A stretch of 64,000 bases of DNA from NCBI GenBank assembly GCA_001823535.1, contig MHUT01000006.1, forward strand, positions 27,631 through 91,630. Direction: 5' to 3'. This stretch comes from Candidatus Yonathbacteria bacterium RIFCSPHIGHO2_02_FULL_44_14 (GTDB taxonomy: Bacteria > Patescibacteriota > Minisyncoccia > Phycocordibacterales > UBA1550). Below, piece after piece: positions 20,301 through 62,608 of this stretch (positions within the stretch are counted from its first letter, which is position 1; each line of letters opens with the position of its first letter). The translations under genes were made by a program, and so were the position numbers. Below the pieces are notes generated by a model. It worked only from the letters and a program-made list of their open reading frames with translations, searched no databases and was not told the origin of the DNA.

Positions 20301-20497
20301 TGTAGCATAGTGTATTTAATGATAAAAATTAGCACAGTTGACATAAAGTCAGACTTTGTGCACTATAATTCTTGCCGACACTGATTGGTATCGGTCTGTC
20401 TGGATGCTTTTTTAAGAACCTCTATTTGCTTATAATCCGAATGTTTCGGCCTAAGTGACTAGAAAATGGTAACAAGAATTTTTGAAAGGGGATAAAA

Positions 20498-20869
20498 ATG
20501 AAAGGGTTCATGCGCAGTCTTGTTAATCGCTTGATCACAAAAAATCGTTACGACAAGTTGCTTGAAATTCAGTTTCCAAATAATCGTGATGAGTTTTTGC
20601 GGTATGTCAAAGAAGATCTTGCGAGCGATGATGTCAATACTATGACACCAGAAACTCTCGGGAAAATTATGTGCCAGATTGATAATGGAGATGTTTCCGT
20701 GACAAAAGAAGAATTGTCTAATTTTGTTCAATTCTTGGGTAACTGTGATGAATTACTTCGTGAGATGGTATCACTTTGTCTTGCGTGTGTGATTTATAAG
20801 CACCTGAACGGCAGTTTAACGAGTACCCAGAACACCCAAGAAAGTTCTTTGCGGATCGTAAAAAAATAA
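20498..20869 (+). CDS. Hypothetical protein (123 aa)
   Basis: Intact ORF with an AAAGGGGATAAAA RBS and a downstream intrinsic terminator. Confidence 0.5.
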   Translation: MKGFMRSLVNRLITKNRYDKLLEIQFPNNRDEFLRYVKEDLASDDVNTMTPETLGKIMCQIDNGDVSVTKEELSNFVQFLGNCDELLREMVSLCLACVIYKHLNGSLTSTQNTQESSLRIVKK

Positions 20870-20884
20870 AAGCATGACAATTCA

Positions 20885-20922
20885 CCCCTTGGCCCAACTG
20901 CGAGCCAAGGGTTTTTTGTTTT
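20885..20922 (+). terminator. Rho-independent terminator
   Basis: cccttggc-ccaactgcga-gccaaggg followed by ttttttgtttt. Confidence 0.8.
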
Positions 20923-20924
20923 AA

Positions 20925-21085
20925 GAGCCTATCCACTATCTCGTGGTACCCAGACTAGAAACCCATATTTTTAGGTGAAAAACAAGTCGGAGGCACGAAA
21001 CATAATGAATTATGTTTCGTGCGAGACGAAGTTTTGTAGCCCAAAATAATGGTTTCTAGGCAGGGGGAAGATAGTAGATAGGCTC
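20925..21085. mobile_element. MITE-like structured element with terminal inverted repeats
   Basis: 17-bp TIR gagcctatc(c/t)actatct at both ends; sub-terminal tagaaacc/ggtttcta pair; 13-bp central hairpin at 20994-21021. Lies between two convergent genes and abuts the stop codon of the 21086-21520 gene. Confidence 0.45.
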
Positions 21086-21520
21086 CTAGAGTCCCTTGCA
21101 AGACGCAGACGGAGTGTAGCCTCGGGTTTCAGCTTCAATTTTTGATGCGAAATGAATGAGGTTTGTTTCTGCGATTTTTTGCACACCAGTGCACCACGGG
21201 TAGTAGTATTTTGTGCCATTTTTTGAGCCTACGAGCTGAGTTGATTGAGTGTTTATTATGCTTGCTGCCTGAGGGTTTTCAAATCCTCTTGCGGTGGCGG
21301 GGCTAAAAGTGTCGACAACAACCTCTGGGGTATTTTCGATGCGAATCGGGGTTTTCGAACCTTCAATTTTGGAAAGCCTACCGAGACCAAAAGACCCAAA
21401 AGCAACGAGAATGATAATGAGTACTAAATAAAGATCGTCCGGGATAGTGCTGAGGTTTGGTCGTCTAAAACCCCCAAACCCCTTGATTTTTTCTACTAAA
21501 TCTTTTATACTATGCATCAC
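21086..21520 (-). CDS. Membrane-anchored protein with a C-terminal Ada-Zn-binding-like fold lacking two of the four Cys
   Basis: N-terminal TM helix; C-terminal KYYYPWC...HFASKIEAETRGYTPSASC pattern. Domain assignment is tentative. Confidence 0.5.
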   Translation of the reverse strand: MMHSIKDLVEKIKGFGGFRRPNLSTIPDDLYLVLIIILVAFGSFGLGRLSKIEGSKTPIRIENTPEVVVDTFSPATARGFENPQAASIINTQSTQLVGSKNGTKYYYPWCTGVQKIAETNLIHFASKIEAETRGYTPSASCKGL

Positions 21521-62256: not shown

Positions 62257-62330
62257 TGGCTGGGAGGCTTGGAATCGAACCAAGATTCTCGACTTCAAAG
62301 GTCGGTGTCCTACCATTAGACGATCTCCCA
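62257..62330 (-). tRNA. tRNA-Gln (anticodon UUG), 74 nt including encoded CCA
   Basis: On the minus strand the acceptor 5' strand TGGGAGA pairs with the 3' strand CCTCCCA (six Watson-Crick pairs, A7:C66 mismatch), with U1:A72 as in bacterial tRNA-Gln. D-arm GTCT/AATGGTA/GGAC, anticodon loop CTTTGAA, T-arm CTTGG-TTCGATT-CCAAG. Confidence 0.8.
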
Positions 62331-62400
62331 AGGTATTATTCAATTTTGCGTACATTTCTTGACTGTGCCAAAAGTATGGCCGAGGCCGCGATTCCGTCTT

Positions 62401-62481
62401 ATGTCTCTATGTGAGACATCGCGACGCGAACTTAAGCTTTTTTATAGTCGAACGCTTCGCTTGTAAAAAACTTAAGTTCGC
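62401..62481. repeat. Two adjacent inverted repeats upstream of tRNA-Gln
   Basis: atgtctc-tatgt-gagacat (62401-62419) and the 17-bp arms gcgaacttaagctttttt / aaaaaacttaagttcgc (62426-62481). Confidence 0.7.
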
Positions 62482-62501
62482 CTACCATTAGACGATCTCC
62501 C
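62481..62501. repeat. Exact 21-nt duplicate of the 5' portion (nt 2-22) of tRNA-Gln, ~150 bp upstream of the intact gene
   Basis: cctaccattagacgatctccc occurs at 62309-62329 (inside the tRNA) and at 62481-62501. Confidence 0.8.
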
Positions 62502-62556
62502 GATGTATTTATTTTTTACAATAATACTTGTGCACAATACACCAAAAAGCTCTCTT

Positions 62557-62608
62557 AGCCAAGTGTCATATATTCGTAGCCATGACTACGAATATATGAC
62601 ACTTGGCT
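62557..62608. repeat. Perfect 23-bp inverted repeat with a 6-nt loop, downstream of dnaX
   Basis: agccaagtgtcatatattcgtag-ccatga-ctacgaatatatgacacttggct. Confidence 0.75.

Follow-up and report, generated by a model that had tools for sequence, protein, structure and literature searches.

Between two convergent genes of Candidatus Yonathbacteria bacterium RIFCSPHIGHO2_02_FULL_44_14, a member of the Patescibacteria (candidate phyla radiation, CPR), lies a 161-bp sequence that folds back on itself and abuts a stop codon. Such a locus raises the question of whether the sequence is a mobile element, a structured RNA or an elaborate terminator, and whether its arrival altered the adjacent gene. The locus occupies positions 20925-21085 of the stretch analysed here, 64,000 nt of contig MHUT01000006.1 (positions 27,631 to 91,630 of the forward strand, GenBank assembly GCA_001823535.1), which is referred to as the window. 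An initial annotation, made from the sequence itself, had described an element resembling a MITE (miniature inverted-repeat transposable element), with a structured small RNA as the alternative. As a whole, the observations are with high probability best explained by a non-coding MITE of 161 bp, which carries the ends of an IS5-family insertion sequence (IS) and was inserted into a TWA trinucleotide (TAA or TTA) at a stop codon.

A dispersed family with common ends

The ends of the element are 17 nt each, inverted relative to one another and different at one position, just as the initial annotation had reported, and a repeat finder that counts the flanks extends the pair to 20 nt at 90%. Two matches to this terminal inverted repeat (TIR) occur in the window, where 0.05 would be expected in shuffled sequence. 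The sub-terminal pair tagaaacc/ggtttcta, also noticed earlier, is present as part of a longer pair of 35-nt arms that are 74% complementary (20949-20983 with 21031-21065), and the central hairpin is indeed perfect, its length being 14 bp rather than the 13 bp first given. The predicted RNA fold is one continuous fold-back on either strand (plus strand, -74 kcal/mol, z = -8.9; minus strand, -78 kcal/mol, z = -11.6), and the DNA fold is likewise a single fold-back (-42 kcal/mol, z = -9.8). None of 200 shuffled sequences folds as well, so that the folding check suggested at the outset comes out clearly for RNA of both strands and for DNA (z about -9 to -12). Only mechanical short open reading frames (ORFs) cross the element, which at 161 bp falls within the size range of MITEs (about 50-1000 bp) and has no coding content. 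The placement is likewise as first described: the element starts beyond the T-run of the upstream gene's terminator and ends against the stop codon of the convergent gene at 21086-21520 (Table 1).

Copies in other genomes were sought by scanning one genome per prokaryotic species, 596 Gb in total, with the 17-mer GAGCCTATCYACTATCT; detection required at least one perfect 17-mer, and all copy counts are therefore lower bounds. The scan returned at least 82 loci, against a chance expectation of about 140 in 596 Gb by our own calculation. Matches outside the CPR are single, have neither a partner repeat nor a TWA flank, and look like chance. Paired inverted 17-mers bound at least 38 elements, the window copy counted, in at least 18 Patescibacteria metagenome-assembled genomes (MAGs). 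Among the matches listed, the exact 17-nt end GAGCCTATCCACTATCT is confined to Patescibacteria MAGs and their metagenomes, apart from isolated matches at chance level, and a scan of viral contigs gave three unpaired repeat matches without TWA flanks, again attributable to chance and indicating no link to phages.

The bounded elements measure 53-344 bp, mostly 140-185 bp, with modes near 160 and 181 bp, and fall into at least three subfamilies with unrelated interiors, namely A (the type in the window), B (about 181 bp) and C (about 159 bp). Several genomes hold 3 to 11 copies each; Ca. Taylorbacteria RIFCSPLOWO2_01_FULL_45_15b (MHRX01) has at least eight complete and three partial copies on eight contigs, and Parcubacteria Greene1014_15 (VMGT01) at least seven complete and two partial ones. 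Along its entire length the window copy shares 74-88% identity with 14 copies of type A found in other MAGs, and a profile built from these 14, with the window copy excluded, recovers 20925-21085 from end to end (model positions 1-161, E = 9e-43). When all 15 are aligned, the similarity ends at the 3-bp flank, and the sequences beyond are unrelated. The initial annotation had reasoned that an element found only once, at a position conserved among relatives, would speak for a conserved RNA or terminator structure; related genomes contain the opposite, a multi-copy family at unrelated loci, and the 64 kb of the source genome examined here contain one copy. Additional copies in the window were searched for with the 17-mer at 3 mismatches, the profile and BLAST of all subfamilies, and none was found except for a core-only similarity near a tRNA-Gln gene, which is described below.

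Not every repeat match belongs to a complete element. Inspection for a full-length IS of the unpaired matches in L005, L021, L079 and L026 revealed truncated copies beside ordinary genes. Contigs of Saccharibacteria and Parcubacteria MAGs (L002, L013, L030, L035, L042, L056, L058, L063 and L070) end 30-140 nt inside the repeat, so that the IS/MITE family repeatedly breaks the assembly of CPR MAGs. At both of its ends, one of these contigs, L030, carries an additional type of element with this repeat.

Target site, empty sites and a possible partner

Flanks were compared for 41 bounded elements, comprising 39 MITEs and two IS copies. Identical 3-bp flanks border 26 of the 41 (15 TAA, 10 TTA and 1 TGA), and a further eight have flanks with a single difference; the same comparison at a control offset gives 1 match in 41. 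Eight of the 39 MITE copies have as their flank the stop codon of an ORF at least 80 codons long, and for most copies the 3' end of a long ORF is no more than about 50 nt away.

The flanks of the window copy are TAA and CTA, which agree at one of three positions. In the orientation of the gene the junction reads TAG, element, TTA, and either side is one substitution away from TAA, so that the simplest account has the element entering a TAA stop codon. Most likely this was the stop of the 144-aa gene at 21086-21520, with the retained duplicate later changing to TAG. The window copy is probably old, judging from its degenerate flanks, its repeat mismatch and its identity of at most 88% to any other copy seen.

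The state of the site in other genomes is consistent with this history. The gene order S41 peptidase, L9, L27, 144-aa gene, PHP, RNase T is kept in relatives, and in five of them (L092, L095, L097, L099 and L106) the TAA or TAG stop codon of the 144-aa orthologue directly precedes a short spacer, the next gene or a bidirectional terminator. No repeat match is present in the 21-238 nt of intergenic sequence of these five, four of which were checked with up to 4 mismatches. If the element and one flank are removed from the window, what remains is stop codon, A-tract and terminator hairpin, which is the layout of L095 and L099. The MAG JAUSES01 carries the closest copy of the element (88%) at L071, and its own orthologous site, on another contig (L099), is empty.

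In several MAG contigs the 30-90 nt between the repeat and the contig end are unlike any MITE, as is typical where a longer repeat breaks the assembly. Metagenome contigs were scanned with the repeat plus five bases of such contig-end sequence, which yielded two complete elements. One of these, at L086 1361-2242, is 882 bp long, has the ends GTACCCATCCACTATCT and GAGCCTATCCACTATCT and is flanked by TAA on both sides; its right end is identical to the MITE end, and its left end has 3 mismatches. The left IS end is perfect in the Saccharibacteria contig ends L002 and L063. Two overlapping ORFs in the L086 element contain DUF4096 and DDE_Tnp_1 domains (PF13340, 70.9 bits; PF01609, 101.6 bits). 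An A8 run (L086 1695-1702) splits the transposase frame, which resumes at +1, and joining the ORFs at this run gives 266 aa that match NF033580, the NCBIfam model "IS5 family transposase", with 224.4 bits (cut-off 110) over positions 1-256 of 258. The closest database relatives are uninterrupted IS5-family transposases of 262-263 aa with 58-69% identity (263-aa-class matches), found in Spechtbacteria, Nomurabacteria, Saccharimonadales, Wolbachia and Spiroplasma and including the ISAba15 family; identity is 60-64% to the listed Wolbachia IS5-family transposases and 64% to the ISAba15-family transposase.

Over 5.7 kb, the flank of the L086 element matches a contig of Parcubacteria RIFCSPHIGHO2_01_FULL_47_10b with 99.3% identity, which identifies a Rifle Parcubacterium as the host. 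Where they could be compared, other insertions of this IS show 100% identity, one of them having a 49-bp internal deletion (L088 7184-8015). Related CPR insertion sequences have ends of the form GAGCCTGT(C/T)CA(T/A)AATCT, for example GAGCCTGTCCATAATCT and GAGCCTGTTCAAAATCT, and TTA flanks. The length of 882 bp, the TAA duplication and the GAGCC end may place the IS in the IS1031-like group of ISfinder, which comprises elements of about 850-950 bp with a 3-bp duplication and ends starting GAG, and this assignment is provisional. With the same ends and a TAA duplication, the 882-bp IS is the likely mobilising partner of the MITE.

On this basis a simple mechanism may be proposed. An IS5-family DDE transposase encoded by an element with the same ends would bind both terminal repeats, excise or copy the element and insert it at TWA, either TAA or TTA, with duplication of this trinucleotide. 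At the present locus, one of the duplicated trinucleotides would still serve as the stop codon, now TAG, leaving the 144-aa protein unchanged, and the hairpin would now separate the 144-aa gene from the old shared terminator and probably lie inside the 3' untranslated region (UTR). The proposal of a MITE-like element made in the initial annotation is thus supported by four observations: a multi-copy family with unrelated flanks, the TAA/TTA duplications, an IS5-family IS with the same ends, and empty orthologous sites.

The conserved hairpin and competing explanations

Several observations weigh against the interpretation as an IS5-mobilised MITE. The 64-kb window, the part of the source genome examined, contains one copy and no transposase; a tblastn search found no similarity to the partner transposase anywhere in it. 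The window copy lacks a clean target duplication, and insertion at this site is deduced from the pattern of the family and from the empty sites of relatives. Those relatives are distant, with 66-72% identity in the neighbouring protein, and the gene slot beside the site is variable; the only near-identical contig, L091, represents the same strain with an identical element, and the search brought up no near-identical strain whose site is empty. The role of the IS5-family transposase in mobilisation is inferred from the ends, the terminal repeats being the only sequence common to MITE and IS, and the split frame in L086 may reflect programmed slippage, a decaying pseudogene or a sequencing error. 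Finally, the strong covariation of the hairpin and its conserved unpaired loops exceed what transposase binding at the tips would need.

The last of these points leads to the most substantial competing explanation, according to which the element is a MITE by origin and its present importance is that of an RNA in the 3' UTR of the 144-aa gene, or of other genes behind which it inserts, serving as an mRNA stabiliser, processing site or terminator, with selection on this RNA producing the compensatory changes. RNAalifold analysis of the 15 type-A copies gives a fold-back with 52 pairs, 16 of which show compensatory double changes, and 95.4% of the cells on the consensus structure are paired, figures that have to be read with the structure being derived from the alignment on which it is tested and with many changes separating two clades, so that there are fewer independent events than the cell counts suggest. 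Neither the observed number of double-change pairs nor the covariation score was reached in any of 500 shuffles, and sliding the partners by 1-3 columns lowered pairing to 40-49% and double-change pairs to 2-7. The central hairpin holds the most compensatory changes (7 of the 12 pairs of helix 6), and unpaired positions are partly invariant across the copies; at alignment columns 20/169, 14 copies have CG and the window copy has CA. From this alignment, the fold-back is a maintained property and not a mere by-product of the repeats.

The subfamilies point in the same direction, all being strongly structured despite their unrelated interiors (z of -6 to -15 for nearly all copies, with the deletion derivatives of 53 and 117 bp weaker); types A and C form complete fold-backs, and type B combines a terminal stem with internal hairpins. 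Also favourable to a 3'-UTR role are the location of most copies near the 3' end of a long ORF, with eight of the 39 touching a stop codon, and the fact that the element parts the 144-aa gene from a terminator that relatives have directly after the stop. The MITEs Correia and ERIC are, moreover, reported to act at the RNA level (PMC3184786). However, both orientations relative to the adjacent gene occur, in a ratio of 4 to 1 (by reading) among type-A copies next to stop codons, which amounts to no clear strand preference, and the bias between G-U and A-C mismatches (about 24 versus 14, counted by hand) marks the strand weakly. Location at 3' ends would be expected anyway, since 3' ends are rich in TAA/TTA targets and insertion at other places does harm, and the covariation fits equally well a need for a single-stranded DNA fold-back in transposition or arm-to-arm correction. 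Retention of the fold-back could thus reflect transposition (joining of the ends, or a single-stranded DNA hairpin), an RNA stem in the 3' UTR, or correction between the arms. The 3'-UTR explanation is considered unlikely.

A non-mobile, conserved RNA, whether a structured small RNA gene or a cis-regulatory element that is palindromic by chance, is very improbable. The great stability of the fold on both strands, the covariation behind its helices and the invariance of some unpaired positions are what such an RNA would display. Yet the loci of the copies are unrelated and bear 3-bp target duplications, the orthologous sites of relatives are without the element, and the ends are those of a transposase-bearing IS. 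Rfam 15 at gathering thresholds identified only the tRNA-Gln, located elsewhere, in the whole window; with E up to 10, the region 20700-21300 gave only meaningless matches to miRNA hairpins and an L10 leader (the terminator), the best in the element region being a plant miRNA hairpin model with 34.5 bits against a threshold of 230. ARAGORN reported nothing in the element region, and a promoter and terminator scan found nothing inside the element and no promoter-like site inside, beside or just upstream of it on either strand. The small-RNA alternative of the initial annotation accordingly has no stand-alone support, and what survives of it is the role at the level of RNA or single-stranded DNA for which the covariation leaves room.

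A further suspicion was that the insertion had truncated or altered the C-terminal end of the protein encoded at 21086-21520 and so removed two cysteines of an Ada-type zinc site. The element does abut the stop codon, and the protein, which has only two cysteines, weakly resembles Ada_Zn_binding (PF02805, E = 0.26), but this match of 11.8 bits is well below the cut-off of 23, so that of the label "Ada-like" only a sub-threshold resemblance is left. A 22-sequence alignment of the family contains 20 full-length orthologues, all of the same length class and all ending in ...CKGL (CNGL in one), with no element at the site where this was checked; W109-C110 is invariant, C141 and L144 are nearly so, and there are no other conserved cysteines. 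The two-cysteine state (C110/C141) in all full-length orthologues aligned marks it as a trait of the family rather than insertion damage; the suspicion of a damaged neighbouring gene in this window is thereby removed, and such damage is regarded as extremely unlikely. A chance palindrome or an extended bidirectional terminator, which the position between convergent genes might suggest, has a negligible probability in view of the folding z of -9 to -12 with 0/200 shuffles as good, the absence of a T-run after the element stem on either strand, the homologous copies in many genomes and the separate terminator-like hairpin that adjoins the element.

Neighbouring features, comparable elements and significance

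The features of the locus are collected in Table 1.

Table 1. Coordinates, in the window, of the MITE, its flanks and the adjoining features
Feature	Position	Strand	Remarks
Fold-back MITE, non-coding, 161 bp	20925-21085	.	Subfamily A of the GAGCCTATCCACTATCT family
Left TIR, GAGCCTATCCACTATCT	20925-20941	+	Equal to the family consensus
Right TIR	21069-21085	-	One mismatch to consensus: A at 21077, G in all 14 other copies
Central perfect hairpin, 14 bp, 2-nt loop	20993-21022	.	Tip of the fold-back; arms 20993-21006 / 21009-21022
Terminator-like hairpin (CCCTTGGC...GCCAAGGG) with T-run, 3' of the 123-aa gene	20886-20922	+	8-bp perfect arms 20886-20893 / 20904-20911
Left flank TAA (last T of the T-run plus AA)	20922-20924	.	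Presumed left copy of the target-site duplication
Right flank CTA, the TAG stop of the 144-aa gene	21086-21088	-	Presumed right copy of the duplication, now mutated
Gene of 144-aa membrane-anchored protein, intact	21086-21520	-	Conserved in Yonathbacteria-like Parcubacteria
Gene of 123-aa protein, accessory	20498-20869	+	Convergent with the 144-aa gene; variable slot

The terminator-like hairpin itself ends at 20911 and is followed by TTTTTTGTTTT, the T-run reaching 20922; an automatic scan missed this hairpin because of its 10-nt loop. The hairpin is pre-existing intergenic sequence outside the element. On the upstream side, the slot that separates the PHP gene from the 144-aa gene (20301-20924) differs among relatives, which have an unrelated 127-aa or 268-aa gene there or nothing more than a spacer of 21-25 nt. 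The 123-aa ORF region of the window has a low GC content (0.34-0.39), and the ORF matches no Pfam family and has no homology to the gene that L095 carries in this slot. This pattern suggests that the slot is a small hotspot of gene gain.

The 144-aa protein has 416 homologues, mostly of 132-150 aa; an exact-sequence look-up gave no match. A truncated version of 112 aa, P0001, on scaffold L091 (from Rifle metagenome ANAN16-1, SAMN03842430) is from the same strain and 98% identical. At L091 2880-2995, a gap of 10 N separates two versions of one segment of the gene, ...YYFSWCIWK* and ...YYYPWCTG..., which probably reflects a mis-join of strain variants rather than a real frameshift, so that the truncation of P0001 is probably an artefact. 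Owing to this mis-join and the identity of the strain, P0001 does not provide an empty site.

A separate set of repeats surrounds the tRNA-Gln gene at 62257-62330 (minus strand). The 5' 21 nt of the tRNA together with 8 upstream nt recur, at a distance of 172 nt, as a direct repeat of 29 nt with 93% identity (62309-62509), and the segment of about 143 nt between the repeats contains two hairpins and belongs to no Rfam family. A Saccharibacteria MAG contains a 162-bp element bounded by TIRs and flanked by TTA (L051 5960-6121), whose interior is 83.5% identical to this segment over 91 nt. The window may thus contain, in this segment, another module related to MITEs, without recognisable terminal repeats. 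Just upstream of the tRNA-Gln region, positions 62557-62608 form a palindrome with 26-bp arms, 96% complementarity and no spacer, for which spurious miRNA hairpin models are the only matches.

MITEs are a well-known class, and the kind of element described here is not new. The MITEs of P. gingivalis share their ends with ISPg1, ISPg3, ISPg4 and ISPg9, and the ATR element of N. meningitidis has the ends of ISNme1 (PMC4596501). Like these IS5-derived bacterial MITEs, the present family is short, non-coding, intergenic and multi-copy, has TIRs that are, or nearly are, those of a co-occurring IS5-family IS, and retains no transposase remnant; the ends of ISNme1 likewise start with GAG (GAGACC...; PMC4596501). 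Differences lie in the sequence, in the Patescibacteria/CPR host and in the covarying fold-back that takes up the whole element, and, whereas the duplications of BrickBuilt are irregular (PMC4596501), the 3-bp TWA duplication here is regular. IS5 elements of the ISWpi1/ISAba15 type are similar to the partner in their transposase (NF033580), unlike the window element itself, which has none.

Among eukaryotes, the Tourist-type MITEs and the PIF/Harbinger elements, which are relatives of IS5, have a 3-bp TAA/TTA duplication and short TIRs that small non-autonomous elements share with one encoding a DDE transposase of the IS5/PIF-Harbinger superfamily. The family described here resembles them in this duplication and in a mobilisation that would act through the ends only; it differs in being prokaryotic, in having as partner a compact IS (about 880 bp) that encodes one transposase and lacks a second, Myb-like ORF, and in showing no sequence similarity to them. 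Correia elements carry a TA duplication and 26-bp ends and are not known to have a clear autonomous partner, and the family here is distinguished from Correia/NEMIS by 3-bp TAA/TTA flanks and by ends with a different 17-nt sequence. Correia/NEMIS in Neisseria and ERIC in enterobacteria are elements of 100-160 bp with TIRs and one long stem-loop, located in intergenic regions near genes and often co-transcribed with them (PMC3184786). In size, TIRs, single long stem-loop and intergenic position near genes the present element is comparable to both; there is no sequence similarity, and RNA-level effects have been documented for Correia/NEMIS and ERIC.

No report of MITEs in the CPR or Parcubacteria was found in the searchable literature. 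The family extends over many CPR lineages, reaches up to about ten copies per genome of about 1 Mb, has an identifiable IS5-family partner, is often found at stop codons and breaks MAG assemblies. Its recognition is useful for the annotation of CPR genomes, where its members could be mistaken for small RNAs or terminators, and for tracking horizontal exchange among CPR lineages. It is conceivable, if on balance rather doubtful, that fold-back MITEs throughout the Patescibacteria are selected for the whole hairpin and tend to land at TAA stops, having been co-opted as stabilisers or terminators in 3' UTRs or being needed as a hairpin-DNA substrate of the transposase. The family offers a natural data set on why bacterial MITEs keep their fold-backs.

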